DNA of 64,000 bases from an uncultured bacterium (GCA_964372875.1 CAYJTB010000001.1:27860-91859); one strand, 5' to 3'; shown: positions 13,559-30,328, counted from the stretch's first letter. Numbers and translations are program-made. The notes: a model not told the origin generated them from the sequence alone.

Positions 13559-15036
13559 GGAGAATCCTTGGAGGCCGCGGAGGCGGAAACCCAATCATCT
13601 ACCAACCGGGGAAGAATATTTGCCGGCTCGAAAAGCTGGATCCGTGACAATCGGCGGGTAAGGGGATCCGCAAAATAAACAAACCCCCGTCTTTCATCCA
13701 AAGCAATTTGAGGGACTCTTTTTGAAATTTGGAAGAGAGGAACCGCTTGGCCATTGCCTTCAAAATCCAACACCTTTACCCAGCCGCCTTCTACAAATAA
13801 AAGATAATTGTCATTGTAAAACCAAGTGAGATTAGAAATTTTTTGCTCTCCCTGATAAATTTTTCGGGGGGAAACGCCGGTTTGGAAAAATTCTTTTTCC
13901 GGTTCACGCTCAAAATCGACCAGCCAAAGTTCAGAATCTTTCCGGTAGACAGCCCGCCTGTTGAAAACGGCCGTGACCACTTCCTCCACTCTCTTGTCCA
14001 GGTAATAGGGAAGCCGGTTGGAAAAAAGCTTGCCTTGATCCGACAAGAAAAGAGCAAACGCCTCATGAAGCGGAGTGAAGATAAAAGGCCGGGAGAGAAA
14101 ATAGAAGGAATAGCGTTCCCCCTCGTCAGGACCGAAAATAAGGTGCGCCTTGGCGGCCGTGCCCAATAACGTTTTCCGGATTTCCCCTTTTTCAGTTAAT
14201 TCGAATAAACGTCTTCGGGCATCCATCACAAAAAGTTTGCGTCTGTCCGTGGTATAGCCCCGAATCCCGCCCTGCACATCAAAGAGAGGAAACCGTTCTT
14301 CAAAATCCATTTTTTTGAGGGTATCGCCTTGAAGATAAAAGAGTGCATTTTTTTGAGAGGGGCCCCAACGAAACTTATCGAAGGGTTCCTGGAGACTTCC
14401 AGCAAGCGGAGTCAGTTCCATGGGACTCAGGAATTTCACAAGAAAAGGACGAATGCCTTCTTTTTGTTTCATGAAGGCCACGGCCTTTTCGCCTAAGGGA
14501 TGCATCAGGACTTCTCCCACTGGGAAATCATATTCGCCTGAAAAATTGGGGAAAATAGGCTCGAGTTGATTTCGCTCAGGTTCAAAAAGATAGAGCCCGG
14601 AGACGTGATCGCCTTGAAGGACTACAAGTTTTCTTGTCTGTGCAGCGTGCCAGATTTTTGTGATGGGAAAATCCGTGAGCTTCTCCGAATCAAACTGAGT
14701 GGGGAAGAGCAAAATATTTTCAAAAGAAAGGACCTTATCGGCTTTGACCTCCACTTGTTTTTGCCAAGGATGCATTCCCGGCAGGCTCAAGTGAAGGTTA
14801 TAAAAACCGGATTTAAGATTACGAATGACGACAGGGGTGGTGTCTTTCAAGACCCGGTGATTGAGCTCAACCTGGGCTTGGGAGGGGTGTGAATTAAGGC
14901 TGATCAGGCCGGTGAGGAGAAGCTTGGAATGGCTGGGGCTGAAAATATAGCCCAAGGCATAGAGCACGGTCAAAGGTGCTATCACAAGGTAGGCTACGGT
15001 AAAAACCAAGAAGATTGCTTTACGTAAAATTCCCAT
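13555..15036 (-). CDS. membrane-anchored PEGA-domain protein, function unknown
   Basis: N-terminal TM helix, then PEGA-like beta-sandwich (AQVELNHRVLKDTTPVVIRNLKSGFYNLHLSLPGMHPWQKQVEV); translationally coupled to the GT2 gene. Confidence 0.6.
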   Translation of the reverse strand: MGILRKAIFLVFTVAYLVIAPLTVLYALGYIFSPSHSKLLLTGLISLNSHPSQAQVELNHRVLKDTTPVVIRNLKSGFYNLHLSLPGMHPWQKQVEVKADKVLSFENILLFPTQFDSEKLTDFPITKIWHAAQTRKLVVLQGDHVSGLYLFEPERNQLEPIFPNFSGEYDFPVGEVLMHPLGEKAVAFMKQKEGIRPFLVKFLSPMELTPLAGSLQEPFDKFRWGPSQKNALFYLQGDTLKKMDFEERFPLFDVQGGIRGYTTDRRKLFVMDARRRLFELTEKGEIRKTLLGTAAKAHLIFGPDEGERYSFYFLSRPFIFTPLHEAFALFLSDQGKLFSNRLPYYLDKRVEEVVTAVFNRRAVYRKDSELWLVDFEREPEKEFFQTGVSPRKIYQGEQKISNLTWFYNDNYLLFVEGGWVKVLDFEGNGQAVPLFQISKRVPQIALDERRGFVYFADPLTRRLSRIQLFEPANILPRLVDDWVSASAASKDSP

Positions 15037-15085
15037 GTTGTTCTAACTCCCTATTGGGCCTCATTTTATGCTACTTGGGGGTCAT

Positions 15086-15114
15086 TTGACAAGTTACGTT
15101 CCAGAGGGTATCTT
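15086..15114 (+). promoter_or_regulatory. candidate sigma-70 promoter for the giant ORF
   Basis: TTGACA, 17 nt spacer, TATCTT, about 200 nt upstream of ATG 15316 in a 280-nt divergent intergenic region. Confidence 0.35.
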
Positions 15115-15213
15115 TTGTTACAGTGAAAGAAACTCTTAAGTGAATGTTCCTAAGGGGTTAGCACCTCGACTCTATTGATTTTTTTGGGGTATGCTCGGTG
15201 CTATGGTGAGCGA

Positions 15214-15242
15214 GATTGAAATTGGCGGTGCCAATTTCAATC
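15214..15242. promoter_or_regulatory. 13-bp-stem perfect hairpin/palindrome in the giant-ORF leader
   Basis: GATTGAAATTGGC ggt GCCAATTTCAATC; could be an operator or an RNA hairpin. Confidence 0.5.
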
Positions 15243-15315
15243 GTGTCGAACCATTAGCAACAACTCCAGGGAATTTTTTTACTCTGTAATTCAGACCTTT
15301 AGGAAAGATTAAACT

Positions 15316-18300
15316 ATGACCCTACGCGCGAAAAATTTTTATCTACGCACTGTCGCAGCTTTCACCGCAATCATTTTTTGCTGGAATAGCCTTGCTTGGC
15401 CGCTTCCCGAGGTTGCGGTTCCCCAGGCCGGCAAAACTTTCGATCTCATTCCAAAAGAACTCGGAACCGTCGATGAATACGAACTGCCGGACGCTTCACA
15501 TTCCGCACCCTTTGTCATACATATTCAAGATCTCCACGCAGCACCCGAAGCTCAAGAAAAAATCCTGGACATTCTTAAATTTTTACATTCAAAAAAGAAA
15601 CTTCTCGTAGCGGTCGAAGGAGCCGCCGGAACGCTTCATCCTGAGTATTTAGATTTCTTTCCGCAATACCCGCGTGTCACAAACGCACTCGTTCAAGATT
15701 TGGTAAGTGAGAGCATGCTTACAGGGCCGGCGTTATTCGCATGGGAGAGGTATGAGAGTAAGCCGTCATTGCACCCGTCATTGCGAGGACGTAAGTCCGA
15801 AGCAATCTCAAATCCTAGATTGCTTCGTCGGGCCTTTGGCCCTCCTCACAATGACAATAGCGTCCAATTCATAGGCGTCGAGACGCCGCGTCTTTATCGC
15901 GAAAACCTTAAAGCCTATCGCGATTTTTTCCAGGATGAAGAAAAAAATCAGCAGGATTTGAAATCTTTCCAAACCTCATTGGAATCGGCCCAAACGAAGA
16001 TTTTCAATCCTGATTTGAGGAAATTTGTCCAAGAAGTCCAGAGACGTAAAGATGGAAAGTTTCAATCGGGAAAGGCCTCGCCCGATCTTGCGGCTTACAT
16101 TCGCTTTCTCGCGGATTCAAGCCGAGATCATTTGGGAGTTGATCTAAGAGATAAATTCGAACAGATCCGTTTTCCCAATCTAACCCGCATTCTTTTCTTG
16201 ATGGAATTCGAATCAAAAATCACTGCTCACCAGCGCCGGGTTCTGCATTCTGAAATTGAATCCAAAAAACTTTTTGATGAAATCACACTTCTCGAAACAA
16301 GACTGCGGCAAATACTGGTTAAAAAGCCGGAAGAAACAAAACTTCTTGAGATCCTTGATGATTTCAAGTTGCTTGAGAAGTTATTCCATTTGGAACTGAC
16401 TCGCGAGGAATATTACCAAGTCGTCAACAGGGTTTTGGAAATCAATCCGTCGAATTTACATCAGCGTTTGGCAACCATTGCTGAGATTGCTTCGACCTCG
16501 TCTGAAATGTTGTCTCGCAATGACGCCGATTACGAAACTGCTCTGCGTTTTTACCGCTTAGCCATTCGCAGAGACAAAGCCCTTCTTGAAAATGCCTTGC
16601 GAGAGGCAGCTAAAACGGAGAACTCGTCTCAAGAAAAACCACTCATCGTTCTTGTTACCGGCGGTTTTCACACTTCAGGGGTGAGCGAGCTTCTCAAAGA
16701 AAAGAAAATTCCTTACGCCGTCGTCACGCCTGCCTTAGCAAAAACCAAAGCCAATCAAGACCAATATCACAAACTGATGTCCGGCAAAATGTTCGCCAAA
16801 GAAGCCTCAAGCGCTTCGCCCAAGAATAACAATCTGGTGTGGGCGCAGATTCTTACAGCAAGAGATCGGTACCCGAGCCTCAATTCCGACGAGGATCAGC
16901 AAAAAATATTTTCCCACGCGACTGAAAAGTCCGGCGAGTATTTTCGAAAATTCTATCCCCAAATCTCCGAACCCAAACTGCAAGAACTTTTATCTCGCCC
17001 CGCCGGATTCTTTTCGCAAATCTCCCGTTCCGAATTGCAAAGTAGGAGCCAGATTACGAATTCGGCCATCGATGGCCGAATTGGCGGGAAAAGGGTACTG
17101 CCTTCACGTTTTCCGCGCTCGGAAGTGCGGGCGGTAGAACAGCGATTAGAAGTCAGTGGTCAGAAGACAGAAGGCTGGAGTTCAAAGATAGGAAAAATTA
17201 TCAGGAATGGCAGCGATTTTGGACTATCGAGGGTTTTCCAGCGTAGTCAGGCGAAGAATTATCGAATTCCAAGCCGCTTAGAAAAATCTCGAGGTGAAAG
17301 AATAGAAATCTCTTTAAAGGTTTTCATCGATAGCAGATCGTGGTCTCCTGTGACAATGATCGTTGCTTTAGCTGAAAGAGCGCATTCCAGCACGGCATCA
17401 TCGTCCGGGTCACGGCAGGCCTTTACCTTTGTTTTAGGTTTGACTATCAAAGCTTTCATATGGATCAATGAAATCATTTCTTCAAGCATTTCAGGCGTGA
17501 TCCATTTCTTGAGTTTAGGTTTTTCCAGTGAGCGAAGAAAGTCTTCCAGTAAGGCCGGAGATAAAGCCGCAATGAACTTGTCTTCTTCCAGGGATTCCAG
17601 AATCGAACGGCAAACGCCCGGAAAGGCGAGTCCGCTCACCAGCACATTCACATCAAGAACGACCCGACGCATACCGTTCCTGCCGGGCTTGCTTGACCAG
17701 ATTCAGAAGCTCTTTTCGGCTGAGAGGGTGTTTCTTTCGGCTTTTATCAACTTTGCGGGTCAGAGAACGGAAGCGTTCTCCCCAGGTCTTATGTTCAAGA
17801 CGACGGATCAGGGTAATGCGGTCACGGGATTTCAATTGATTGATCATGCGCTCAATTTGTTGAATGTCTACTTCCACGGCAATCTTAGGCATAGGATTTT
17901 ATCCTCCTCTTCGAATCAGTATAATTTATCGGCCTTGGCGGATCAAAATCAAAACATTTCTTCCGTTAAGCCTTCTAAGCAAAGTTCGACAGAACCGAGC
18001 CGAAGGGCCGCTTCCGGCCCCGAGAGCCGTCAGTCTCCGATCCTAAGCGTCGATAGACCCGGAGGGGCCCGTGGGGAGGTGCGGGCAAAAGAACAGAGGT
18101 CAGAAGTCAGAGAGCAGAGGATAGAGGTCATAAGTCAGAGATCAGAAGGAAAAATTACTTCGAGTGGCGGCGATTTTGGTAGCGTTCGATCAGGTACATC
18201 ACGCCCCAGGCAAGAAATATCAAAACCAAAACAAGAGACACGGTTATCACGTTTTATTTACCCCTTTTCCGAATCTCTTGGGCAAGCCATCCAAGAAATA

Positions 18301-21300
18301 AGAATCATGATGGCTACAATTATAGAGAGAACAGCCTTGGCCTTCAATGAAGTTTTCCAAATGTTTTCGCTCACCACGAGGGCTGCTAATACAAGGCTCA
18401 CCGCCCTCATGATCCCATCAGCAAACAAATTCCGTCTTTTAGATGGAAAAAGGGTTTTCATCTCAATGCTTCAAGCGCCGCAACCTAACACAGGATTAAT
18501 TTTAAGTCAAATATTATTTTTAGAATATGAAATATCCCGCCGCTCGGAGGTGCGGGAATACATCTCGGATTGGACGGTCTCGACCTTGGAAACGAAACAG
18601 CCGGTTTTGGCGGCGGCATTTTCAACGGACGGGAAGATTTTGGCCGCGGGCGCAAGAAACAACGTTCATCTGACCAACGGAGACCTTCGGAAATGGTCCG
18701 TGGAATTTAGGGCCCACCGCAACGAGATTGCAAAACTTATTTCTTTTCAAAGAGGAAACAGGAATTTTTTCGCCACAGCCAGCAGAATCGGCTCGATCAG
18801 CCTATGGAATTCAAACGGCGGGCTGATCCGGCGGCTGGAGCAGCTTAATCCGGAGGATTTCCAACCTGTGTTAGGGTTATCCGTTTCTAAAAATGGAGAT
18901 TGGCTGGCAGCCACGGACATGGATGTAATGAAGATCTACGATCTTACGGGAATGAGTTCCCCTAAAACAATTCCCATCACGGATCAAAGTCGCAATCATT
19001 TCGTTCAATTTTCTCCCGATGGGACGAGCATCGCCTCCACTTATTACGGCGAAATCCGAATCGAGGATATCAAAACCGGAAAACTCCGCGCGAACCTTCA
19101 TCACGAAGCTTCTCTTAAGAAGTCCATGGATACGTCAGCCTTGGCCTTTTCCAAAGGCGATGATGTCGCCGCGGCCTCCACCGACGGAAAAATCAGGATC
19201 TGGAGATGGAAAGGGGAAAGGCAGCCTCAGGTTTTAGATTTTTTGTCACCAGCCCGCGAAGCAAGCCACCTCATCTTTTCACCTAATGGAAAACGTCTCG
19301 CCGCGTCTACGGCAGATCAGATCGAAATATGGAAACTTAATGGAAAAGTGTGGCGTCATGAAGAAACAATCTATCCGCATCTGGACGCCGTGACAGAAAT
19401 TTTATTTTCACCGGATGCAAAACGGTTTATGGCCGCAGGCATTTGGCACGGAAGCGGGAGAGTCCGAATTTGGTCGAAGGAAACGCCGGCAAGGGCCGAA
19501 GTGCGGACCGACGGCATCCCGACAACCTGGTTCCGGATTTTTAACAGGCTGGATAACCTTAACCGGGAAGTGTGGAAACAAAAAGATTTAGACATCATTG
19601 ACCTGACCAACCAATTGGAGAAAAAACTCATCAGCTTATTCGGTTCGCAGCTCCTTTATGGAATCTGGACTTGGAATACTTCAGTTCGGGAAGTACGGTT
19701 TGGCCTTAGGTCGGGGCCTTTAAGTTTTGAATTGACTGCCAACCCGCATCAGGAAATCCCGGAAAGAGAAATTAAAAGGGGATACACGGTAACAATGAAT
19801 GCGATGCTTACTTCCGCTGCGGAAAGTCAGCATGCAAAAAAATGGGGAGACAGCGAACCGGAAGAAAGGGGAGAGACTTTGCTTGAAATTCCTATTGCAG
19901 AGATCGACCGCTCCCAACCTGTTATCTATTTCGGCAGTTTCTATTTTGATACCGACAAGGAAAAGAAAGAAACGATCATCAAACAGGAAATCCTTTTCCT
20001 TCCCGGAGAGGAGAGAAATTATCAAATCTATATTTGGCATAACAACGCCCTTGAAAAAACTACCTTAGAAAAAGAAGGCGGCAGGACCTACGCGGTATGG
20101 AGAACGCCGGAAGCCGAACCTTCCCTTTCGTTTCAATATGTGGCACTGCATGATGCCCAAGGCAAAGACCTGGGCGAAATAAGCCGGCTCATTCTGAAAG
20201 CCGGAAACTCGGAAACTTACAGGAACAACCTTCAATTTCTTTACGGTCCTATTTGGAGAGACGAAACGTCGAGTTTTTCTCATGGTAGCAGAACTTCCGT
20301 AAAACCATCGGTTTTTGAAGACCTTATCTCTGCTGCGCCGGGCAAAAGGATCGCTGCGCTGCTGGGTCTAGCGATTGAATATCAATATGTCCCGGAAGGC
20401 CAAGTATTCAGCCGGATGCTGCTTACCGAATTGGAAAAATTGGAGGGCCTGCCGTACGGACGAATCGCAGCGCTTCGAGAAATTGCGGAAATGAGTCCCG
20501 AGGAAGCCCATGAAAGATTTAAAGATCCCTACGACCAGCCCAGCGCGATCCCGGCCGTCATGACCCTCGTGGCCAGCCTCGCCCCGCGTCTCCTTGAAAG
20601 AATGAAAAATTGGGATCAGGAATTTTATGAAGAGCTAAAAGGGGTCCTGCAAAAACCGGATCTCAAAACTTTATTCGAGGAAGGGGAGGTCAAATTTTAT
20701 GAGGCGGATCATCTCTGGGCCGCTTCAGATAACCGATCTTTTTTCCCTGGTGTTGTCGCCTTTTCAAGGAGTAAAGACCGGCAAATCATCGTCCCAATCT
20801 ATTTCGGCAACGAACCGAAAGATGAAGACGGCAAAGTCTGGTTTAAAATCTTGGACGCCACATCGCTTGGAATCGAGAATTCAAATGCCGCCACTTACCA
20901 AGTCTACGACCACATGCTCGGGGAATTTTATAAAACACTTCATTCAGGGGAAAAACTTTATCGAGAGGGTTGGAGCATCGGCATTCCGGTCGTCCCGGGA
21001 AAGCTGGACCGGGCCGGGTTTATCCAAAAGGGACGGCATGTTCAATTTTTGGAAATGCGAAGGACCCAATCTCTAACGACGGCGACCCGGATCGGCTTGC
21101 CGGAAAATCTTGTCAAGACACAAGGGATTCTTACGGATCTTTTGAGAGAAATGAGTAAACTCGAAATTTATTTTTTTATCAGTAAGACCGGTGCAACCGA
21201 TCGGCGCATGGTGCCTGTGGATAACGTTTATGAATTTTTTTCATCCTATGCGGGGAAAAAAGGCGAGCATTGGAATGAAATCGTAAGTGAGCCCCTTCAA

Positions 21301-24300
21301 TTGACCGTGAGCTCTCCGGGTTTTAAGCGCCAGACGCTTCGGCATGCGCTTCGGATGATGCAGGAAGCGCTTCAACTTACTTATTCTTTCCCCGGCACTT
21401 TGAAAGGAAATGACCCCCACCTTTCTTTTTATCACGATAAATTAATCGAAGAGACCCAACTTTTAAAAACATCGGATCAAACCGGAAAGTGGGCCCATGT
21501 CGAATTCGAAATCGCAAGCAGCCATTTTGAAATGCCGGATCATTGGGATCAGCCCGCCGAAAATTCGCTGCGTCAAAGAATTCAGGCGTTGCGCGAGGCA
21601 TTAGAAATTCCCTTTGTCCTTATGTTAAAAGCACCTTCCGGCGCCAAGGATCCTTATCACATCGAGCCGGTGGGAAACCTTCACCAGCGGCTTCCTTATT
21701 TTGTTCTCAAAGATGATTTCTTGAAAAATCCTCACGATCCGCGTTTTCCCTATTTTTCAAAAGGCGCTCAACTCAGTTTCGGACTTGAAGCACCCATGGA
21801 TTCGGCAAGATTGGAACAAGTTAGAAATATTCTGGTTGCAAGTCTTGAAGGCCGGATGTCGGCAGCTACCCTTAAGCGTGCCATTGAAGTGACGATGCAT
21901 CAGTGGCAAAGAGAAGACTCCTTCTTTTCCGAATCCCGCTCCGAGGCACGCCGTGTGCCTCGAACGCTTGCGGTGCACCCGGTGCGGTTGGCACCGGGTA
22001 CTCCGCTATACCCGGACCGGTCGGGTCCGGGTGTTGCGGTGCAGAGTCATTGGAACTCTGCCCGTTCAGAAGTTCGAACGGAGAAGTCAGAACGTCTAAC
22101 TCGTTCCAATGCAGGCGAATTACTCAAACCGCGCAGATACCTCAAGAATAAAATCTACGGAATTGGGCGCATTACCGCTGTGGAAGGAAAATTCGGGGGA
22201 AAAGATCCTCAAGGCTCCGTCGAGGTCGCTTTTTTAAATAAACACGGATTCGAAGAAACGAAAGAATTTTCCACCTGGTCACTTTTTCAATTGCCGGAGC
22301 AAAATCCCGAAGAAGCTTTCTTTTCCGTTACCAGGCAAGAAATCGAAGATTTCAAGAATCAAAAAAGACAAGGTCAAGCAGCTTATAAAGAAGAAATAGA
22401 TAAAAAACGCATAGCCCAACGGGAGGGCAGGCAATGGATGGAAGCACAAAGCCCCACATTTTCTCTCTACGATTCGCCTTTCAGCGCAAGAGCCGGAAGG
22501 CCCCTGGCCGCAGATTATAGAAAATTGATGCAAGGAATCCAAGACCGGGCACAGGGCGAGTATCACTTGGGCAGCGCCTCCATCGTGGAACGAAAAATTT
22601 TGTTTGAAATGCTGGGCACTCGCCTGATCCCTAAGACGAACCAATCGGAAACCACCCTTCGGATCAACTTAGGCCGGAGAAAAAAGGAATTCGCAGAGAA
22701 ATTGAAAACGATTTTAGATGAAACGGGCGGGCTAAGCGCCCGGGCCGTGAGCGAGGCGGAAGAGAAAATCATGTCTCCCAAAGATAAGTCCCGTGCGCTT
22801 TCAAGCGAATGGCTGAAATTCCGGGATCCTGTTACCGGTAAATTTGCGACCGAAAAAGATATCAAACGCTGGATCCAGAATGCCATTCCGATCGTTGAAA
22901 GAATCTTAGAATATGAAGTAAAACTTCTCAAATTAGAAAAACAAATTCAAATTCATCCGCGGCCTCTTGCGCGATCCGAAGTAAGGGCCGCTGAAAGTTC
23001 TCCCACAAAGAAGGTCGCATTTTTTAACCTCAGGACCGCGGACGATTCATCCATTGTTTTGCCGCAAAGGATGTCCTATCTTCCCGTCGAGCAGCGGTTG
23101 CCTGACTATAGCGCCTGGCGGATTCGAGTGGGAAGGGAATCGGGAAATTTGCACGCATTTTTGAGAGATGTCCTTGGCCCACGCTGGCATTGGAATGTCA
23201 AAGGAGAAACTAAGGCTTATTTTCTTTATAAAAGTCTCCCGAAGAAATTCAAACAATTTATTGGTAAACGCAAACCGCCGACAGGTTTTGATATGGAAGC
23301 GCTTGGACTTTTGGTGGTTAATCGAAGCGACATTTTTTACATTCCGATGGAAGAAACTGTGAATGAATCCGTGGTAACGGTGTTAGACAAAAATGACCGG
23401 GACGCGATCAATGAATTTATAAGCCATCATGCAATGATCCAAACGGTGCCGCAGAATATCCGGATCTTTCCTCCCGTTCGATATGAGAGCGTCAAGTTTG
23501 GATTGGGAGAGGATCCCGTGTCGAGTCCCAAGCCCGGCTCCATCGAAGTTGTTTATCACCCCAGGCTCATGGTCAATGATCTTGGCAAGGCAGATAAAGA
23601 AATTATTTTCGAAACCAGTTTCGACTTAACACAATTAAGGCCCCGGAAAAAGATTACGGCTGAACTTGAGGGAAGATTCTATCAAGAGTTAAAGTCCAGG
23701 CTGCGCAATACTTGGCAGATCCGCATAGGCAACCGGACCGTGGAAATGCCTCGGGCAAAAGATTTGCCGGCTAAAGTTCAAGACGTGGAAGAAATTTTGT
23801 TGCCGGGGAATAACCGTAAAACGGCGTCTTTACATTTCAATGATGCGGTTTCGTTCTATCTCGACGGAATTTTGATGCGCTCCAATGTGCCTGTACCCAA
23901 GGATATTCACGCCTGGATTTTTTGGAAAACACGGATTCGTTTTAACGATCAGGAAATCTCGGTTGAAACGACCGAAGGCAACAATGTATTAACTTATCGA
24001 ACAGATGAAACCGGTGAACATCTGCGGGTCAATGGCGAACCGACAGACAATAGTGTTTTGCAAAACATGATTCGTCAGATGGGCTCCGCTTTTTCAATCT
24101 TGGCCTTTCAGATGGCGCGCGATCCCGAACAAACGGATTATCTTCGCGAATCCGGCAAAGAAACGATTGATGATGAATTCGACCAATGGCTCGGCCGTTC
24201 TGAGGTGCGGGAAGAAGGACAGCCTGCACAAAATGGGAATGGCCACGCTATCCAGAAAAAGCAAAGAGGCCGCGGGTTCAGGACTAAAGAAGAAGCCTTG

Positions 24301-27300
24301 CAAGCCCTTGCCGAAAGACAGGCAAAAGGTCTTTCCAGTGATCCAAAATCCCTTCAAAGGCATTTAGCCGAAGGCGGCAACCCTACTTTGCTCACCTTCA
24401 TTTATCGATGGAATCAAAAGCACCCGGAAGAACCCATTGAAATGAAATTGTTGCCTACCCGAACCCACAAGTACGAATCCAAAGGAGAAATTATTGAAGC
24501 GCTGGAAAAAAGGCGGCTGGAAAAAGGAGAATCAGCCAATTATCGAATGCAATTACGCCTTCATATAGAAGAAGGCGGCGATCGTACATTGTATCAAGCG
24601 GTTCTGCGTTGGAATCATGATCATCCAGAGGATTTGATCAATCTTCCTTTGGATCCCCATGTGGCGCATGGTCAATTGGGAAAATACCAGACCAAACAAG
24701 ACGGCTTGAATACTTTGAGTGAAAGGAAAAAACAAGGTCTGGGAAATTCAACCAGCGATCTCAGGCAAACTAAATCGGATGGGGGGGATTGGCCTCTTCT
24801 TGTTTTTATTCGCCATTGGAATAAGAAGCATCCGAAGGATCGCATTGCGCTGGAGAATGCTGACCAAAACTTCAACCGCCTGAGTCCTGTTGCGGTCTGG
24901 CATTCCCAGACGCAGGATTTCAAGACGACCGATCAAAAAAGAACCGAATGGTGGCGGGCCTTGCAGGAAGAGGCGGATCACGAAGCTGGAAAAAGGCTGG
25001 TCGAGTCTTTTATTCCTTCAGTCAATGAGATTGCCCAAAGGTTAAGCGGGGGGAGAGATTCGCATTATGAAGCGGATTTAATCCAAAACGGAAATATGAT
25101 TGTCCTTGAGACGATCTATCCCGAGCGTAAAGAAGACCAGTGGAATCCGAGCCGCGGGGTTTCCATGACCGAATTTGTCGAGACCCGTTTAAAGAAAGAG
25201 ATGAGGCACCGGACATTGCAAGAGATACGTTCCAGCGGGAGATTTTCCATCGACGAGCCCTACCGTTTTTCCAAAGGCAGAGAAAAGGAATGGCAGGTTC
25301 CCAGTTATGACGCCCAACCGCAGGAAGTCCGAATTAACAACTTGGCTGATGAGAGGGACAAGCAATCGGGCCTTCCCGTGATTTTGTTTGAGGAAAAACA
25401 TCAAATCGCCCGCGAGATCGGAAAATGGTTAATCAAAAAAGGTTTTCTTAAACAGGTCAAGCAGGAAGGGATTCAGAACCTTGCCGTTTCAATGATCGGA
25501 AGCCTGGGAGTGCTCGGATCGGCAGTCAGAGATAAAAGCGATCTTAATTTGATGGTTGTTACCGACGCAAATGAGTCGCAGGCTGAAGCCCTCGCAGAAA
25601 AACTTGCGCAGTGGATCGGGGGCCGATATCACGAGCCGCAGGATTCGGAGCCTATCCGCATCTCCGTAGGAAAAGAAGGTGATTATGAGCAAGCCATAGC
25701 AGACGGAAACGGCTTCATTAGCTTACTTCAAAAACACAAGGTGGGCACAGACCCCATCAAAGGAATTGCAAGCGTTGAAGTGATTGGAATTCCCGACGAA
25801 GACAACTCGTTTTCCGAAGACTCTCTTACCCGGCAAAAAACGCGGGCGGCTTTTCACCTGGCCTTCCAAGATCCCCGGTTAGCCGAGCAGGCAATCAATG
25901 GGATCCTTGTCCTTGAAAATGCCAAGGGGGCCGCAGAGCGTCTTGCCCAAAAATTGCCGAGCGATCAGGAAAACCTTTTCGGTTATTATGAAAAATTTCT
26001 TGCCAAACAAGCCGCCAATCTTCGCAAGTTGCAGGAATCTTCCATTGACTCAAAAGCAAGGGCCGAGGTGCACCCGAATCCGACCGATTCGGGTACTCCT
26101 CAGTCCTCGCCCGATCAGGCGAGGGCCGAGGTGCGTTCTTCTTTGCCGGAGCAACGGGCGGAAAAGAAGTTAGAAACAAGAAAGTTGGAAATTGGAGCAG
26201 GAATCAGCGGGCTTAGCGGCCGCGTTGAAACATCTAATGGGCGTGTTTTTTCCGGAAGTGATCGATTGCCAATAAAGTCAACGAGATCGCCGCAAAAATC
26301 AGAATGGCAAGGACAGCCGTCATTTAGTCTTCCTCCTTTGAGGAGCTTGCCGCAAAAATCAAGCCCAAATAAAAGCATATCACGAGTCCTCCTAGAACGA
26401 CAAGCCGCCATTTCAGGGAGAGTTTTAGGAAAAGCTCTCCTCCCAGAACTCCTGCTAATAGGACCAAAATCACATGCTGAAACAACTTTGCCAGCCAGTC
26501 CCTCCGGGCCGTTGTCAGGAATATACTTTTCACAAAATAAAATATATAGCAATATCAATTCAGAGTTAAGCGATTTTTCCCGCTCCGATGGTTCGACAAG
26601 CTCACCATCGGTCCTGAGCAAGGCCGAAGGCCGCGTCGAACGCGCCGAGGTGCACCCGAATCCGACCGATTCGGGTACTCCTCCGCACTCACGCCCAACC
26701 GGCGTGAGTACTGAGGTGTCCCTGGCGGCGCCGCCAGGGGCTCCTCCGTCCTCGCCTGAACGGGCGAGGGCCGAGGTGCGGGCAAGCGTTGAAGAAATAA
26801 TCAGGAAGCAGATGCTTTCTGGAGATCTGAAGGCCTTTGAAAAGAATTTCGAATCTTACGACCGTGAAAAGGCCTTTGAACTTTTAAATAGCATTTCGAA
26901 AATTGCCAAGGAAATTTCAGAAAGGATCCGCAAAGGAGAAGAAGAACTGATGGTAGCTGCAAACAATGGCCAAAAAATGCAAGAAATCATTGACGCGGCT
27001 AAAATCTTGGAAAATTTCCCAAATGATAAACAAATACATGGTGTCCACCTATCAGCTATTATAAATTTACAGGAAATCTTCAATCTTACACCAAAAGCAT
27101 TGCCAAGATATCGCAATCTCTTAGAAGCTATTGTTAAACACGCGTCAAAAAAAGAACAACCTCACCAGGCAGCAGCTGAAATTATCGAGAGCTTTGAAGG
27201 AGAACAGCACGCTGATTCCCAACAAGATCAATTTCAAAGGAACGAAGCACTGGAATTTTTAACCCTAGATCTGGATGAAAAAGTTTTTAAAGAAACAGTA

Positions 27301-28719
27301 ATAAAAAATCATTTTCTGACCGCGCTTCATCATTTCATTTGGGAACACAGCGACTTTGAAGATGCGAAGAATTTAGCCAGAGAACTCGGTAACTTGAGCC
27401 TAATCAGTTCTTTGTTGGGTGAGCCCCTCAGTAAAAGACAGGCCGCTTTTTATAAGCGCGCACTTTTGAGCTCTGACCGCACGCAGCAGAAGATCGCGCT
27501 TGGCTTCTTCGAGACTTTCCCTGATCTTGAAAAAATGGACTGGAAAGAGGAAGTCGTTGGTAAACTTAAAGAAATCGTAATGGATGAATCCGAAGATTCT
27601 GAATTTAGAAAATATGCCTTTGAAGCGTTGACAAACAATATTCTTCTTATAGAGCCAGCCTTTTTGGCGCCTTATTTTAAAGAGCCGCGCAGCCAACGGT
27701 TTCGAATCATTTCTTCGGATAAAAAAGGCGCTCGGATTTTATTTTCGGTTCTTCAGAAGAAATTTGGGTCGCCTTTAAAGGACCCGCCCCTTTTTAAAAA
27801 AAGTTCCGAGTCCATCATTTTATCAGGAGAATTTACGACAGGTCTGAGAAATGCTGCCATGTTGATCCGATTTGTAAGGCAGGCCTACGGCCGGGAGATA
27901 TCCTTTGATGAGTCCCGCGGCTTGCTTAAAGAGATGAAAAAGAAACAAGACAGATCCCGGCGTTCCGAAATACGGAGTGAAAGCTTGGATTCGACGTGGG
28001 AGTTGAGGGAGGATGCGAACAAAGGAAAGCTTGCGGAACTTGGAAAACAATTTGCGCCGATGATTGAGAGTCTTTGGAAACGCTCCGAGGTCAGGCACAG
28101 GCTTGCGACGGACGGATTTTTGAATCTTTCAAAGCTGATTGAAATTCCCAAAGCCGAAGCGGCTGAACCTGCGATTGTAGCTGCGCTTTTGATCCGTGCA
28201 GAACAATCCCAAACCGGAACGCCGGCTTTGGACAAACATTTGCAAGTGTGGCAGTCGCGCATGGGAATCAGTTCGGTTGCTAAAGAAAATGAAGTCGTAA
28301 TCCTCTTAGAAGGTGCGGCGTTTAAACTCGGACTCTTGGCTGCGATCGACGGAATTAGCCCGGCAGCTCCGAAGATCGGCGTTGTGGCGCCCAAGGCTTA
28401 CCATTCTTTAGTGGAAGAAGTCAGAAGCGGTCTTAGAACCGGGCAAGAACTGATCGAAGGGGAGAAGCTTCCCGAAATTTTAAATCAAATTGCTCAGATG
28501 AAACAGAAGCCAAGCCGCTTAACGATTTGGGCTTCGAAGGAAGACTCGTTCTTAACAGCAGCGTTCATCAAACGTTTTCTTAAAGATCCAAACCTGAATG
28601 TAGAAGTAAAGACCGTGACGCAGCGCGATCTTGACCGCGCCAACGCGTCTCACCCCGGCTTTGCGGAACGTATCAAGAACTTCCTCGCCGCCGTCAAATC
28701 CCTCAGCATTTCCGCTTAA
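15316..28719 (+). CDS. giant modular ORF, 4,467 codons, function unknown
   Basis: Single uninterrupted frame; AGGAAAG RBS; N-terminal TM helix; protein-like composition in most modules; junction peptide conserved with synonymous codon variation. Caveat: three segments look non-coding on this strand. Confidence 0.7.
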   Translation: MTLRAKNFYLRTVAAFTAIIFCWNSLAWPLPEVAVPQAGKTFDLIPKELGTVDEYELPDASHSAPFVIHIQDLHAAPEAQEKILDILKFLHSKKKLLVAVEGAAGTLHPEYLDFFPQYPRVTNALVQDLVSESMLTGPALFAWERYESKPSLHPSLRGRKSEAISNPRLLRRAFGPPHNDNSVQFIGVETPRLYRENLKAYRDFFQDEEKNQQDLKSFQTSLESAQTKIFNPDLRKFVQEVQRRKDGKFQSGKASPDLAAYIRFLADSSRDHLGVDLRDKFEQIRFPNLTRILFLMEFESKITAHQRRVLHSEIESKKLFDEITLLETRLRQILVKKPEETKLLEILDDFKLLEKLFHLELTREEYYQVVNRVLEINPSNLHQRLATIAEIASTSSEMLSRNDADYETALRFYRLAIRRDKALLENALREAAKTENSSQEKPLIVLVTGGFHTSGVSELLKEKKIPYAVVTPALAKTKANQDQYHKLMSGKMFAKEASSASPKNNNLVWAQILTARDRYPSLNSDEDQQKIFSHATEKSGEYFRKFYPQISEPKLQELLSRPAGFFSQISRSELQSRSQITNSAIDGRIGGKRVLPSRFPRSEVRAVEQRLEVSGQKTEGWSSKIGKIIRNGSDFGLSRVFQRSQAKNYRIPSRLEKSRGERIEISLKVFIDSRSWSPVTMIVALAERAHSSTASSSGSRQAFTFVLGLTIKAFIWINEIISSSISGVIHFLSLGFSSERRKSSSKAGDKAAMNLSSSRDSRIERQTPGKASPLTSTFTSRTTRRIPFLPGLLDQIQKLFSAERVFLSAFINFAGQRTEAFSPGLMFKTTDQGNAVTGFQLIDHALNLLNVYFHGNLRHRILSSSSNQYNLSALADQNQNISSVKPSKQSSTEPSRRAASGPESRQSPILSVDRPGGARGEVRAKEQRSEVREQRIEVISQRSEGKITSSGGDFGSVRSGTSRPRQEISKPKQETRLSRFIYPFSESLGQAIQEIRIMMATIIERTALAFNEVFQMFSLTTRAANTRLTALMIPSANKFRLLDGKRVFISMLQAPQPNTGLILSQILFLEYEISRRSEVREYISDWTVSTLETKQPVLAAAFSTDGKILAAGARNNVHLTNGDLRKWSVEFRAHRNEIAKLISFQRGNRNFFATASRIGSISLWNSNGGLIRRLEQLNPEDFQPVLGLSVSKNGDWLAATDMDVMKIYDLTGMSSPKTIPITDQSRNHFVQFSPDGTSIASTYYGEIRIEDIKTGKLRANLHHEASLKKSMDTSALAFSKGDDVAAASTDGKIRIWRWKGERQPQVLDFLSPAREASHLIFSPNGKRLAASTADQIEIWKLNGKVWRHEETIYPHLDAVTEILFSPDAKRFMAAGIWHGSGRVRIWSKETPARAEVRTDGIPTTWFRIFNRLDNLNREVWKQKDLDIIDLTNQLEKKLISLFGSQLLYGIWTWNTSVREVRFGLRSGPLSFELTANPHQEIPEREIKRGYTVTMNAMLTSAAESQHAKKWGDSEPEERGETLLEIPIAEIDRSQPVIYFGSFYFDTDKEKKETIIKQEILFLPGEERNYQIYIWHNNALEKTTLEKEGGRTYAVWRTPEAEPSLSFQYVALHDAQGKDLGEISRLILKAGNSETYRNNLQFLYGPIWRDETSSFSHGSRTSVKPSVFEDLISAAPGKRIAALLGLAIEYQYVPEGQVFSRMLLTELEKLEGLPYGRIAALREIAEMSPEEAHERFKDPYDQPSAIPAVMTLVASLAPRLLERMKNWDQEFYEELKGVLQKPDLKTLFEEGEVKFYEADHLWAASDNRSFFPGVVAFSRSKDRQIIVPIYFGNEPKDEDGKVWFKILDATSLGIENSNAATYQVYDHMLGEFYKTLHSGEKLYREGWSIGIPVVPGKLDRAGFIQKGRHVQFLEMRRTQSLTTATRIGLPENLVKTQGILTDLLREMSKLEIYFFISKTGATDRRMVPVDNVYEFFSSYAGKKGEHWNEIVSEPLQLTVSSPGFKRQTLRHALRMMQEALQLTYSFPGTLKGNDPHLSFYHDKLIEETQLLKTSDQTGKWAHVEFEIASSHFEMPDHWDQPAENSLRQRIQALREALEIPFVLMLKAPSGAKDPYHIEPVGNLHQRLPYFVLKDDFLKNPHDPRFPYFSKGAQLSFGLEAPMDSARLEQVRNILVASLEGRMSAATLKRAIEVTMHQWQREDSFFSESRSEARRVPRTLAVHPVRLAPGTPLYPDRSGPGVAVQSHWNSARSEVRTEKSERLTRSNAGELLKPRRYLKNKIYGIGRITAVEGKFGGKDPQGSVEVAFLNKHGFEETKEFSTWSLFQLPEQNPEEAFFSVTRQEIEDFKNQKRQGQAAYKEEIDKKRIAQREGRQWMEAQSPTFSLYDSPFSARAGRPLAADYRKLMQGIQDRAQGEYHLGSASIVERKILFEMLGTRLIPKTNQSETTLRINLGRRKKEFAEKLKTILDETGGLSARAVSEAEEKIMSPKDKSRALSSEWLKFRDPVTGKFATEKDIKRWIQNAIPIVERILEYEVKLLKLEKQIQIHPRPLARSEVRAAESSPTKKVAFFNLRTADDSSIVLPQRMSYLPVEQRLPDYSAWRIRVGRESGNLHAFLRDVLGPRWHWNVKGETKAYFLYKSLPKKFKQFIGKRKPPTGFDMEALGLLVVNRSDIFYIPMEETVNESVVTVLDKNDRDAINEFISHHAMIQTVPQNIRIFPPVRYESVKFGLGEDPVSSPKPGSIEVVYHPRLMVNDLGKADKEIIFETSFDLTQLRPRKKITAELEGRFYQELKSRLRNTWQIRIGNRTVEMPRAKDLPAKVQDVEEILLPGNNRKTASLHFNDAVSFYLDGILMRSNVPVPKDIHAWIFWKTRIRFNDQEISVETTEGNNVLTYRTDETGEHLRVNGEPTDNSVLQNMIRQMGSAFSILAFQMARDPEQTDYLRESGKETIDDEFDQWLGRSEVREEGQPAQNGNGHAIQKKQRGRGFRTKEEALQALAERQAKGLSSDPKSLQRHLAEGGNPTLLTFIYRWNQKHPEEPIEMKLLPTRTHKYESKGEIIEALEKRRLEKGESANYRMQLRLHIEEGGDRTLYQAVLRWNHDHPEDLINLPLDPHVAHGQLGKYQTKQDGLNTLSERKKQGLGNSTSDLRQTKSDGGDWPLLVFIRHWNKKHPKDRIALENADQNFNRLSPVAVWHSQTQDFKTTDQKRTEWWRALQEEADHEAGKRLVESFIPSVNEIAQRLSGGRDSHYEADLIQNGNMIVLETIYPERKEDQWNPSRGVSMTEFVETRLKKEMRHRTLQEIRSSGRFSIDEPYRFSKGREKEWQVPSYDAQPQEVRINNLADERDKQSGLPVILFEEKHQIAREIGKWLIKKGFLKQVKQEGIQNLAVSMIGSLGVLGSAVRDKSDLNLMVVTDANESQAEALAEKLAQWIGGRYHEPQDSEPIRISVGKEGDYEQAIADGNGFISLLQKHKVGTDPIKGIASVEVIGIPDEDNSFSEDSLTRQKTRAAFHLAFQDPRLAEQAINGILVLENAKGAAERLAQKLPSDQENLFGYYEKFLAKQAANLRKLQESSIDSKARAEVHPNPTDSGTPQSSPDQARAEVRSSLPEQRAEKKLETRKLEIGAGISGLSGRVETSNGRVFSGSDRLPIKSTRSPQKSEWQGQPSFSLPPLRSLPQKSSPNKSISRVLLERQAAISGRVLGKALLPELLLIGPKSHAETTLPASPSGPLSGIYFSQNKIYSNINSELSDFSRSDGSTSSPSVLSKAEGRVERAEVHPNPTDSGTPPHSRPTGVSTEVSLAAPPGAPPSSPERARAEVRASVEEIIRKQMLSGDLKAFEKNFESYDREKAFELLNSISKIAKEISERIRKGEEELMVAANNGQKMQEIIDAAKILENFPNDKQIHGVHLSAIINLQEIFNLTPKALPRYRNLLEAIVKHASKKEQPHQAAAEIIESFEGEQHADSQQDQFQRNEALEFLTLDLDEKVFKETVIKNHFLTALHHFIWEHSDFEDAKNLARELGNLSLISSLLGEPLSKRQAAFYKRALLSSDRTQQKIALGFFETFPDLEKMDWKEEVVGKLKEIVMDESEDSEFRKYAFEALTNNILLIEPAFLAPYFKEPRSQRFRIISSDKKGARILFSVLQKKFGSPLKDPPLFKKSSESIILSGEFTTGLRNAAMLIRFVRQAYGREISFDESRGLLKEMKKKQDRSRRSEIRSESLDSTWELREDANKGKLAELGKQFAPMIESLWKRSEVRHRLATDGFLNLSKLIEIPKAEAAEPAIVAALLIRAEQSQTGTPALDKHLQVWQSRMGISSVAKENEVVILLEGAAFKLGLLAAIDGISPAAPKIGVVAPKAYHSLVEEVRSGLRTGQELIEGEKLPEILNQIAQMKQKPSRLTIWASKEDSFLTAAFIKRFLKDPNLNVEVKTVTQRDLDRANASHPGFAERIKNFLAAVKSLSISA
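15765..15855. mobile_element. MITE-like element inserted in-frame in the giant ORF
   Basis: GTCATTGCACCC GTCATTGCGAGG...AAGCAATC..GATTGCTTCG...CCTCACAATGAC; translated SLRGRKSEAISNPRLLRRAFGPPHND. Confidence 0.6.
16475..16524. repeat. possible degenerate/short copy of the same MITE family
   Basis: CCATTGCTGAGATTGCTTCG...TCTCGCAATGAC, translated ...MLSRND; left terminus is weak. Confidence 0.3.
17059..17082. repeat. 24-bp perfect palindrome
   Basis: AATTCGGCCATC|GATGGCCGAATT, 34 nt upstream of the first RSEVR junction. Confidence 0.9.
17259..17672 (-). CDS. PIN-domain ribonuclease toxin (PIN_3/VapC-like)
   Basis: VVLDVNVLVSGL..., CRDPDDDAVLECALSAKATIIVTGDHDLL: acidic PIN residues in the canonical order; 20-nt overlap with the upstream small gene. 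Confidence 0.9.
   Translation of the reverse strand: MRRVVLDVNVLVSGLAFPGVCRSILESLEEDKFIAALSPALLEDFLRSLEKPKLKKWITPEMLEEMISLIHMKALIVKPKTKVKACRDPDDDAVLECALSAKATIIVTGDHDLLSMKTFKEISILSPRDFSKRLGIR
17653..17892 (-). CDS. putative antitoxin of the PIN toxin
   Basis: 79-aa basic protein directly upstream of and overlapping the PIN gene; strong RBS; family not recognised. Confidence 0.6.
   Translation of the reverse strand: MPKIAVEVDIQQIERMINQLKSRDRITLIRRLEHKTWGERFRSLTRKVDKSRKKHPLSRKELLNLVKQARQERYASGRS
18070..18556 (-). mobile_element. antisense cassette 2: junction, 3'-flank repeat, small membrane protein
   Basis: Same build as cassette 1; bounded by junctions at 18070 and 18541; minus-strand TTGACT -35-like box upstream of ATG 18461. 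Confidence 0.4.
18258..18461 (-). CDS. small two-TM membrane protein (paralog of 26324..26533)
   Basis: 67 aa with two hydrophobic helices. Shares MK(T/S)(L/I)F...RR..(F/L)A...LVL.A.V...SLK pattern with the other cassette protein. Confidence 0.5.
   Translation of the reverse strand: MKTLFPSKRRNLFADGIMRAVSLVLAALVVSENIWKTSLKAKAVLSIIVAIMILISWMACPRDSEKG
18556..19491 (+). other. WD40-type beta-propeller module of the giant ORF
   Basis: Repeated units such as FSTDGKILAAG, ATASRIGSISLWN, FSPDGTSIAS, ASTDGKIRIWRW, FSPNGKRLAAS..IEIWK, FSPDAKRFMAAG..RVRIWS. Confidence 0.8.
21937..22080. repeat. in-ORF array of GC-rich hairpins at a module junction (copy a)
   Basis: CGAGGCAC/GTGCCTCG; CCCGGTGC/GCACCGGG; ACCCGGACC/GGTCCGGGT; CAGAGT/ACTCTG; CCGTTC/GAACGG; flanked by RSEAR and RSEVR codons. 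Confidence 0.65.
24274..24857 (+). repeat. three tandem ~65-aa protein repeats inside the giant ORF
   Basis: GFRTKEEALQALAERQAKGL...GGNPTLLTFIYRWNQKHPEEPI / KYESKGEIIEALEKRRLEKG...GGDRTLYQAVLRWNHDHPEDLI / KYQTKQDGLNTLSERKKQGL...GGDWPLLVFIRHWNKKHPKDRI. Confidence 0.6.
25060..25230 (+). other. sigma-70 region-2-like stretch in the giant ORF
   Basis: EADLIQNGNMIVLETIYPERKEDQWNPSRGVSMTEFVETRLKKEM resembles DLIQEGNIGLMKAV..FDP.RG..FSTYA.WWIR. Confidence 0.35.
25483..25575 (+). other. nucleotidyltransferase (Pol-beta/MNT-like) motif in the giant ORF
   Basis: SMIGSLGVLGSAVRDKSDLNLMVVTD matches the G-S-x(n)-G...D-x-D minimal NTase pattern. Confidence 0.45.
26059..26136. repeat. in-ORF hairpin element (copy b)
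   Basis: AGGGCCGAGGTGCAC CCGAATC cgacc GATTCGG GTACTCCT...CCTCGCC cgatca GGCGAGG GCCGAGGTGCGT; 39 bp (26062-26100) are repeated perfectly at 26644-26682. Confidence 0.7.
26324..26533 (-). CDS. small two-TM membrane protein (paralog of 18258..18461)
   Basis: 69 aa, GTG start, two hydrophobic helices, acidic C-terminus (SSSKEED); A/T-rich TATATT box upstream on the minus strand. Confidence 0.5.
   Translation of the reverse strand: MKSIFLTTARRDWLAKLFQHVILVLLAGVLGGELFLKLSLKWRLVVLGGLVICFYLGLIFAASSSKEED
26641..26781. repeat. in-ORF hairpin element (copy c, expanded to four hairpins)
   Basis: CCCGAATC/GATTCGGG; ACTCACGCC/GGCGTGAGT; CCCTGGCGG/CCGCCAGGG; CCTCGCC/GGCGAGG. Confidence 0.7.
26782..27960 (+). 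other. alpha-helical (HEAT/ARM-like) module of the giant ORF
   Basis: Helix-rich composition with a recurrent ~40-aa helical periodicity; judged by eye only. Confidence 0.3.
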
Positions 28720-28737
28720 TCTTGTTTCAAACCACGT

Positions 28738-28766
28738 TTGACAAACATGCCAAATTGTATTACACT
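28738..28766 (+). promoter_or_regulatory. candidate sigma-70 promoter of vapBC
   Basis: TTGACA, 17 nt spacer, TACACT; ACGGAGG RBS precedes ATG 28808. Confidence 0.5.
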
Positions 28767-28807
28767 TTACCGATCGATAAGTTAATCGTATGACAACGGA
28801 GGCTTGA

Positions 28808-29391: not shown

Positions 29392-29397
29392 GATTCC

Positions 29398-30312: not shown

Positions 30313-30328
30313 AATTCATTATCCGGAA

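Follow-up and report, generated by a model that had tools for sequence, protein, structure and literature searches.

The direct repeats examined here flank cassettes of antisense genes within a giant open reading frame (ORF) of an uncultured bacterium, in a stretch of 64,000 nucleotides (nt) (GCA_964372875.1 CAYJTB010000001.1:27860-91859; hereafter the window, with positions counted from its first letter). The giant ORF (15316..28719, plus strand) is a single open frame of 4,467 codons, its modules parted by the peptide R[S/A]EVR, and three cassettes of minus-strand genes lie between its modules. The repeats were originally predicted to serve precise, in-frame excision of the cassettes. They are probably the codons of a boundary peptide in a polyprotein-like Omnitrophota giant ORF, with the antisense cassettes housed in translated spacers, while the excision switch is a minority possibility.

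The boundary peptide R[S/A]EVR

R[S/A]EVR was found ten times in the giant frame (starts at 17116, 18097, 18541, 19492, 22063, 22972, 24196, 26122, 26767 and 28081), with no further copy in any of the window's six frames. Variant forms are RGEVR (18070), RSEAR (21937), RAEVH (26059 and 26641) and RSEIR (27961), and the looser pattern R[SA]ExR has 12 copies in the ORF. The copies are spelled differently at the DNA level, with, for example, CGC, CGT, CGA or AGG for arginine and GTG, GTT, GTA or GTC for valine. Across 122 motif instances, all six arginine codons were represented at positions 1 and 5, and serine was encoded by TCN 80 times and by AGY seven times. Because the spelling varies synonymously from copy to copy, the conserved object is the peptide and not a DNA att site, and a motif acting at the RNA or DNA level was rejected on this codon diversity. 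The GGAGGTG within the 16-nt repeat was also considered as a ribosome-binding site, or its GTG as a start codon, and was discarded since other junctions have GTT, GTA, GTC, AGG or CGA at that place.

Three features identify the motif as a mark of module boundaries: its enrichment in long ORFs, a WD40 domain that fills one interval, and a segment of low model confidence just before a junction. The WD40 beta-propeller (module 2, 18541..19491, plus strand) occupies the entire interval between two motifs, with WD40-type Pfam matches covering residues 12-314 of 317. In the structure model of the N-terminal head domain (module 1), residues 562-600, immediately before the module 1 junction, have a predicted local distance difference test (pLDDT) score below 50, and this segment is probably disordered, as judged from the model. 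A tblastn genome scan with module 1 recovered homologs at 34 loci (E values down to 2e-72), nearly all in metagenome-assembled genomes (MAGs) of Candidatus Omnitrophota; these and other contigs are cited below by number (L). R[S/A]ExR was present, in 1-11 copies, in 22 of 29 head-domain ORFs examined, many of which exceed 3,000 amino acids (aa) or leave the contig. Its density in the related loci was 1.05 per 1000 aa in ORFs of at least 1200 aa versus 0.147 in shorter ORFs, a difference of about 7-fold. The motif is, then, a peptide-level signal at module boundaries.

The direct repeats

The left junction repeat, CGCTCGGAAGTGCGGG (17116..17131, plus strand; the RSEVR codons and one further nt), and the right junction repeat, CGCTCGGAGGTGCGGG (18541..18556, plus strand; RSEVR, at the start of the WD40 module), are identical at 15 of 16 positions and lie 1,425 nt, or 475 codons, apart, exactly as first described. 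A middle copy, CGTGGGGAGGTGCGGG (18070..18085, plus strand; RGEVR), is situated between cassettes 1 and 2, and is followed by a 21-nt tandem array of degenerate junction codons (18090..18148, plus strand; EQRSEVR / EQRIEVI / SQRSEGK). At cassette 3, the 15-mer GAGGGCCGAGGTGCG occurs at 26121 and 26766, 645 nt apart, as had been reported; the identity actually extends over 18 nt (26118-26135 / 26763-26780) and is embedded in 40 nt that are repeated with 90% identity. The second repeat at this cassette, given as 39 bp, is perfect over 40 nt (26062-26101 / 26644-26683) and forms part of a 47-nt repeat of 94% identity.

The geometry on which the original prediction was based proved sound, as deletion in silico between each repeat pair kept the frame of 15316-28719 open and left one junction. 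The product across cassettes 1 and 2 reads ...PSRFPRSEVREYISDW... (475 codons lost), and those at cassette 3 read ...PDQARAEVRASVEE... for the 26121/26766 pair (215 codons lost) and ...KARAEVHPNPTDSGTPPHS... for the 40-nt pair (194 codons lost). Taking any pair, frame-preserving deletions remove 475, 318, 157, 215 or 194 codons.

A single 15/16 match is, on its own, not beyond chance in 64 kb. There are 192 same-strand 16-mer pairs of this quality in the window (78 of them independent), compared with 17-40 in shuffled sequences. Nine lie inside the giant ORF, and seven of these nine consist of junction-motif DNA, all seven in frame, while the 16-mer with up to three mismatches occurs six times against an expectation of 0.52. 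Ranked by similarity, 17116/18541 and 26122/26767, which flank the cassettes, are among the top three of 45 junction pairs (14/15 nt); 19492/26767, an unrelated junction pair, reaches the same 14/15. Nothing outside the 16-mer matches between the two ends of cassettes 1 and 2. At cassette 3, the likeness continues leftward for 27/30 nt, and the repeated unit is an element of about 80 nt with hairpins. Its left copy (26056..26135, plus strand; repeats D5, D6 and D8) comprises RAEVH, two hairpins and RAEVR, with a fold z-score of -3.4, and its right copy (26638..26781, plus strand), which is 63 nt longer, comprises RAEVH, four hairpins and RAEVR, with a fold z-score of -6.6. The matching stretch is 16 nt at cassettes 1 and 2 versus 40-80 nt at cassette 3. 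The idea that the repeat is a target specific to insertion was not borne out, since it consists of peptide-motif codons that stand at every module boundary, including cassette-free junctions at 19492..19506 (RAEVR), 22972..22986 (RSEVR), 24196..24210 (RSEVR) and 28081..28095 (RSEVR), all on the plus strand, and that recur in the same 22 of 29 related giant ORFs.

Genes of the antisense cassettes

Cassette 1 carries a gene for a PIN-domain toxin of 137 aa (17259..17672, minus strand; PF13470, E 8e-18; TIGR00305, 84.9 bits against a cut-off of 29.15) and, overlapping it by 20 nt, an antitoxin gene of 79 aa (17653..17892, minus strand) with a weak VapB15 match. A PIN toxin with an adjacent upstream antitoxin corresponds to a type II (VapBC-like) toxin-antitoxin system. 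The toxin has 19 homologs at 62-84% identity, and the 79-aa partner is retained upstream of the PIN gene in L043-L047; the exact PIN protein has no record in the assembly index. Cassette 2 holds geneA, for a protein of 67 aa with two transmembrane (TM) segments (18258..18461, minus strand; alignment A5), and geneB, for a single-TM peptide of 31 aa (18155..18250, minus strand), which has homologs in cassette 3, L001 and L040-L042. The paralogs in cassette 3 are a geneA of 69 aa (26324..26533, minus strand) and a geneB of 29 aa (26234..26323, minus strand) with a strong Shine-Dalgarno sequence. The geneA family comprises 30 clusters at E<=1e-3 among 1.84 billion protein representatives. Judged by these matches, geneA is a real protein family, and cassettes 2 and 3 are paralogs of each other with two genes apiece.

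Codon-usage log-odds favour frame +0 in every module of the giant ORF and turn to the minus strand within the cassettes. All three cassettes consist of real genes on the minus strand, and each spacer that houses them has a motif copy on either side. A 169-aa minus-strand ORF at 27885-28394 was considered as a fourth cassette and rejected, as it has no Pfam match and the log-odds favour the plus frame. The left ends of cassettes 1 and 2 are homologous over about 110 nt (repeats D1, D4 and D10), and the tail of cassette 1 (17132..17258, plus strand) contains degenerate copies of the junction motif together with a remnant of the 3'-end of geneB (17190-17222). Because its left end matches that of cassette 2, the toxin-antitoxin pair sits in a degenerate copy of a geneA/geneB cassette.

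PADLOC gave no match to the cassette proteins, NCBIfam gave only a far-sub-threshold match of geneA to YbgE (E 0.006), and Rfam gave no match over 15000-29500. The order of geneA and geneB (18258-18461 and 18155-18250, minus strand), with a two-TM protein followed by a one-TM peptide of about 30 aa, recalls YbgE and CydX, which is a hint only.

A stop-free frame across the cassettes

Over the three cassettes the giant frame has no stop codon, while the other plus-strand frames have 5-18. When synonymous codons of the minus-strand genes were resampled and the non-coding parts shuffled, the chance of a stop-free frame was about 5e-5, 6e-5 and 5e-6 for the three cassettes. Depletion of stops through strand composition was rejected as an explanation, because in these very stretches the other two plus frames hold their 5-18 stops. 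No Pfam match at E<=0.1 was obtained for the three spacers translated in the plus frame. Between genomes, the toxin and antitoxin proteins are 59-66% identical, but the peptide of the opposite frame only 41-46%. As the cassette proteins are better conserved than the opposite-frame peptide, the selected products are those of the cassette strand, and the giant frame is constrained only not to stop.

Cassettes in other contigs

Homologous cassettes lie opposite a stop-free frame in seven other contigs, and in six of these the frame continues past the cassette: L001, L040, L041 and L042 (geneA/geneB), and L046 and L047 (toxin-antitoxin). Stop-free frames over antisense genes occur both here and in other contigs. 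In L001 the geneA/geneB cassette is antisense in another giant ORF, between GRTEAR and KSEGR. The three further geneA contigs with DNA at hand, L040-L042, each have exactly one opposite-strand frame with zero stops over the whole contig. Motif or motif-like copies adjoin the cassette in five of the six contigs (L001, L040, L042, L046 and L047): TRGEVR in L040, at the same cassette end as the RGEVR of the window (18070), and ARSEVQ/PRAEVR in L042, with only RRPEVR in L041. In L047 the toxin-antitoxin cassette is antisense to an open frame of 701 aa.

The most extensive example is L046, from an Omnitrophica MAG, where an opposite-strand frame of 1,141 aa spans the whole contig, through a geneA-like gene, a geneB-like gene, a coiled-coil gene and an antitoxin-PIN pair, with RAEVR, RAEPR, RSEVR and RAEVR between the nested genes. 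The matches of the small genes to geneA and geneB are weak (E 0.006 and 0.25). The order, a small membrane gene pair followed by antitoxin-PIN, is similar to the window's, with protein identity of about 64%, and because of this recurrence the block looks old rather than recent. The coiled-coil gene is a third type of nested antisense gene, encoding a protein of 89-120 aa in its own inter-motif spacer beside geneA/geneB; its copies, at L046 1523-1792 (plus strand) and L042 ~640-1000 (plus strand), are weakly similar (E 0.002).

A different setting is seen in L043-L045, in which the toxin-antitoxin pair lies between ordinary genes and the open stretch of the antisense frame coincides exactly with the pair. 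For any one toxin-antitoxin copy, an antisense frame without stops has a probability of about 0.02. A metagenome scan with geneA found one locus only. Antisense-coding runs in related giant ORFs were also sought by codon usage; none was flagged, but the known cassette of L001 was missed too, the thresholds being too strict, so this negative carries no weight. When 965 nested antisense ORFs were compared all against all, shadow similarity beneath the homologous head domain dominated the outcome.

Hairpins near the junctions

A family of perfect hairpins, with a stem of 9-10 bp and a conserved pentaloop GGTYG (complement CRACC), is present at 21977-21999, 22010-22032, 26072-26094, 26654-26676 and 26687-26709 in the window, and in relatives at L046 1859-1883 and 1892-1914 and at L047 2110-2132. 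Their stems vary between copies by compensatory changes, and tandem copies are spaced at 33 nt (11 codons). All eight lie within 113 nt of a boundary motif, where shuffles give 0-3 (stems of at least 6 bp), and one of the L046 hairpins contains the RSEVR codons themselves. Hairpins of this type flank cassette 3 and lie near junctions in L046 and L047; cassettes 1 and 2 lack them, and they recur at a double junction without a cassette (21937..22077, plus strand) that is made up of RSEAR, four hairpins (at 21942, 21977 and 22010 among others) and RSEVR, with a fold z-score of -6.25. Around 17116, 18070 and 18541, windows of 51 nt had no better folding than shuffled sequence (z -1.3, -0.7 and -0.2). 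The hairpin family has no Rfam match; it could be involved in RNA processing or stability, or could be a recombination signal.

A polyprotein-like reading and its alternatives

In the favoured reading, the ORF would begin with a conserved head domain and close with a tail module, with variable modules in the middle, all parted by R-[S/A]-E-V-R, with each antisense cassette placed in a translated spacer that has a boundary motif at each end. Because every downstream module would depend on uninterrupted translation, the giant frame would be kept stop-free across the spacers. With a motif on both sides of the spacer, each neighbouring module would keep its normal terminus, and if the motif is a processing site, the meaningless spacer peptide would be trimmed off. 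Since the flanking motifs would in this way preserve module termini and permit trimming, the flanking direct repeats would be a functional requirement. Cleavage at the motif may be carried out by the Tiki/ChaN-like head domain or by another protease; the Tiki superfamily includes metalloproteases, and a candidate boundary-motif stretch for the predicted cleavage by the head domain is ...PSRFPRSEVREYIS.... The flanking repeats themselves most likely arose by local duplication of junction DNA upon acquisition of a cassette. Deletion between them would be possible, and in frame, but would be incidental and not a dedicated switch.

Several points weigh against this reading. The motif is missing from seven of the 29 related ORFs, and relatives of the head domain include esterases and haem binders besides proteases, with a model pLDDT of only 69. 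The toxin-antitoxin clade of L043-L045 is stop-free in antisense even though it is not inside a giant ORF, so the stop-free property may be partly inherited and not selected in place. Both the translation of the ORF in one piece and the cutting at the motif are predictions from the sequence. The DNA identity of the flanking pairs and the conserved-loop hairpins near the junctions also point to an additional process, at the DNA or RNA level, which the polyprotein-like reading does not need.

In one alternative, the cassettes would be mobile units that enter junction DNA by site-specific or homology-driven (Campbell-type) integration, with duplication of the junction and with precise, reversible excision, and a pool of stop-free antisense cassettes would circulate among giant ORFs. 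Consistent with this, the modules on either side of a given cassette family are unrelated from one genome to the next, and the toxin-antitoxin clade is found inside giant ORFs (window, L046 and L047) as well as in an ordinary context (L043-L045), where it is stop-free too. The 40-80 nt, including hairpins, that are duplicated on both sides of cassette 3 are what Campbell-type integration would give, the flanking pairs rank among the three most similar junction pairs, and hairpins with the GGTYG loop cluster at spacers of the cassette 3 type. Junction DNA is also tandemly duplicated beside cassettes, in the 21-nt array at 18090-18148 and over about 25 nt in L042, where CGCGCCGAGGTGCGGACCGTAAA occurs twice at ~150-200 (giant-sense strand); as the first copy is out of frame, the L042 duplication is a DNA-level event at the cassette border. 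However, the search for a site-specific recombinase or RAYT-like transposase, proposed for the genome and run on the window, found no integrase, transposase or Y1 (RAYT) gene among the scanned ORFs of at least 150 aa. Across genomes no conserved DNA was seen at the cassette ends apart from the motif codons, and the flanking motif copies in L046, L047, L001 and L042 are dissimilar in DNA. The flanks of cassettes 1 and 2 share 16 nt only, a match equalled by an unrelated junction pair, and these cassettes have no inverted repeats at their ends; the sole inverted pair at cassette 3 (I1) results from palindromes that lie within the direct repeats. The gene order shared with L046 at about 64% protein identity argues against rapid turnover. 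A search for an empty-site allele (module 6-cassette 3-module 7) returned none and was uninformative, the identical Logan fragment having been missed as well. With no recombinase in the scanned ORFs and no conserved DNA ends, active or reversible excision is unsupported, and a mobile-cassette system of this kind is unlikely. Mobility on an evolutionary time scale is evident nonetheless, because the modules flanking the cassettes are unrelated among the window, L046, L047 and L001. As for insertion with duplication of a junction, as originally proposed, it is plausible at cassette 3, with its 40-80 nt including hairpins, and unproven at cassettes 1 and 2, with their 16 nt. The duplication at cassette 3 is what the entry of a cassette into an already existing spacer would leave, and the double junction at 21937-22077 is a counterpart without a cassette.

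The reverse order of events would have the opposite-strand genes present first, with the giant ORF growing over them by loss of stops and gain of motifs, so that the repeats would be convergent motif copies. Such an unfused layout is represented by L043-L045, where the pair lies between opposite-strand genes and the antisense frame is already open over exactly the unit. In more distant relatives, the head-domain homolog is a stand-alone gene of 406 aa between giant genes, and the dissimilar DNA of the flanking motif copies in relatives also agrees with convergence. But convergence explains neither the true duplication of 40-80 nt at cassette 3 nor the left ends, homologous over about 110 nt, of cassettes 1 and 2. 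The presence in one ORF of three cassettes from the same family fits duplication or insertion better, which makes growth of the ORF over resident genes quite improbable. Coincidental repeats, or an artefact of assembly or annotation, can be given hardly any weight. While 15/16 matches of a 16-mer are common in 64 kb, chance is excluded by the perfect 40-nt repeat, the motif statistics and the stop-free probabilities. The same architecture is present in independent ENA, NCBI, JGI and Logan assemblies, and an independent Logan contig (L005, ERR3478686) is 100% identical to 26752-30376, which argues against an artefact.

The polyprotein-like reading may also be extended, to one that is conceivable but which we regard as rather doubtful. 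Here, some Omnitrophota giant ORFs would be true bacterial polyproteins with R[S/A]ExR boundaries, whose spacers are translated and then discarded, and these spacers would act as landing pads for a circulating pool of antisense cassettes (a small membrane-protein pair, a PIN toxin-antitoxin pair and a coiled-coil gene) that are filtered for, or adapted to, a stop-free opposite frame, and are gained or lost by recombination between duplicated copies of the boundaries or hairpins. If true, this would represent a gene-within-gene architecture and a cassette system without known counterpart.

The head domain, the tail and neighbouring genes

Module 1 (15316..17115, plus strand) is the conserved N-terminal head domain, consisting of an N-terminal helix and a fold of the ChaN/erythromycin-esterase type, in the Tiki superfamily, that was modelled with moderate confidence. 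Residues H74, E101 and R419 are invariant in the alignment of the head domain (A4). It has few homologs in the databases, two of which run on past GRSEMR or SRSESR into other modules. Within the head domain there is an in-frame palindromic insertion (15766-15855, with a hairpin at 15798-15827; ...SLRGRKSEAISNPRLLRRAFGPPHNDN...), which is missing from a homolog of 48% identity (P0001) and falls in a segment with pLDDT <50; it looks like a hairpin repeat element tolerated in a coding loop.

Modules 2-8 have no homolog in any locus fetched. Module 6 begins (24196-24900) with three repeats of about 62 aa (...EALxxLxxRxxxG...LxxHLAEGGxxTL...) that have a weak match to Arm-DNA-bind_4, and similar repeats are found at L041 193-453, on the giant strand, adjoining a geneA cassette of the cassette 3 type. 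The ORF ends in ...SLSISA, and its last junction motif, RSEVR (28081..28095, plus strand), is 207 residues before the C-terminus. Of the 26 complete long ORFs in the window and loci L001-L039, 19 have a C-terminus of the form ...[S/A/Q/T/N/Y]-Ala, and the last motif is usually 207-323 residues before the C-terminus. These sequence comparisons suggest that the geometry of the tail module is conserved, possibly with a C-terminal recognition signal. In L009, a lone stop codon (9470-9475) parts two giant ORFs of the same frame (1,967 and 1,524 aa), and this stop may mark a true gene boundary, be read through or stem from a sequencing error.

The neighbours of the giant ORF are housekeeping genes, with SecY, Adk, Map, RpoA, SurA and PdxA upstream and KsgA, GatA, GatB and TsaD downstream. 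Directly after the ORF, and before ksgA, is a second toxin-antitoxin pair in sense orientation (~28800-29391, plus strand), made up of a MazE-like gene and a PIN gene of 125 aa, with a matching region at 2057-2640 of L005. The L005 contig starts 15 nt before the right-hand junction of cassette 3, a break that may be due to low coverage or to a branch of the assembly graph at a repeat.

Implications

Omnitrophota giant genes are among the longest ORFs known, and their products may work as single proteins or as cut pieces. A recurrent boundary peptide in dozens of giant ORFs provides concrete candidate cleavage sites, and a principled way of splitting such sequences for structure prediction. Stop-free frames over opposite-strand genes in independent genomes are sequence evidence for obligatory read-through by ribosomes, and indicate that a translated spacer can accommodate functional genes in antisense. 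There is also a consequence for annotation, as gene callers usually report the giant ORF alone, and the cassette genes are found in databases almost only on short contigs. The notion of a programmed excision switch is tempered, in that the repeats are boundary signals in the first place and possible recombination substrates in the second.

Comparison with known systems

The cassettes have partial parallels among mobile elements. Sedentary chromosomal integrons carry cassette arrays that include inverted toxin-antitoxin cassettes, and they resemble the present case in having units of one or two genes, a repeated boundary, an inverse toxin-antitoxin unit with its own promoter-like site, and conceivable excision. 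They differ in that the scanned ORFs of the window included no IntI and the boundaries have neither an attC structure nor a GTTRRRY core; the boundaries of the window read GARGTGCGG, are conserved as peptide, and the 'array' is a single translated frame. In contrast to transposons and insertion sequences (IS), the cassettes have no terminal inverted repeats, and no transposase was found among the scanned ORFs. The hairpins near the borders of cassette 3 are similar to those of repetitive extragenic palindromic (REP)/RAYT and IS200/IS605 systems, being short, perfect, GC-rich and in tandem, with a conserved loop, but they lie in a coding frame with a period of 33 nt, are lacking at cassettes 1 and 2, and have no Y1 transposase in the window.

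Other parallels concern the gene products. Inteins are in-frame insertions in a host ORF that are tolerated since they are removed at the protein level, and the spacers are likewise in frame and possibly removed from the protein; they differ from inteins in having no Hint or endonuclease domain in their translations, in carrying their genes on the opposite strand, and in a removal that would depend on boundary processing by the host. The toxin-antitoxin pair is arranged like other type II VapBC-like systems, with a PIN toxin preceded by a small overlapping antitoxin gene, except that here, and in L046 and L047, it is nested antisense in a giant ORF with its opposite strand free of stops. Viral polyproteins have recurrent protease sites, such as those of picornavirus 3C and potyvirus NIa, and share with the present ORF the single long frame, in which a short conserved peptide stands at every domain boundary, and possibly also a protease that the frame itself encodes. 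The Omnitrophota ORF differs in its location on a bacterial chromosome and in that its cleavage is predicted from sequence, and we know of no viral polyprotein with translated spacers that hold functional opposite-strand genes.

The closest relatives are the giant multi-domain genes of the Omnitrophota, very long ORFs tiled by unrelated domains, with sequences that are largely unique between genomes (10.1101/2023.11.21.568195; 10.64898/2026.06.07.730766). West-Roberts et al. (2023) suspected that these giant proteins are cleaved, at points that were unknown (10.1101/2023.11.21.568195). The words 'antisense', 'junction' and 'linker' are absent from the text of the two giant-gene papers, and 'motif' appears once, in a cited title (10.1101/2023.11.21.568195; 10.64898/2026.06.07.730766). 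A literature text search with the pentapeptides returned only unrelated papers on alginate lyase, and the nested antisense arrangement, which is also present in other Omnitrophota contigs, was not found in the literature searched. The ORF of the window belongs to the same phylum as the published giants, and their uniqueness matches the lack of homologs for modules 2-8. At 4.5 kaa it is far shorter than those giants of at least 10 kaa, and what sets it apart from them is the boundary peptide that recurs along it, the shared head domain, and the spacers, free of stops, that carry genes on the opposite strand.

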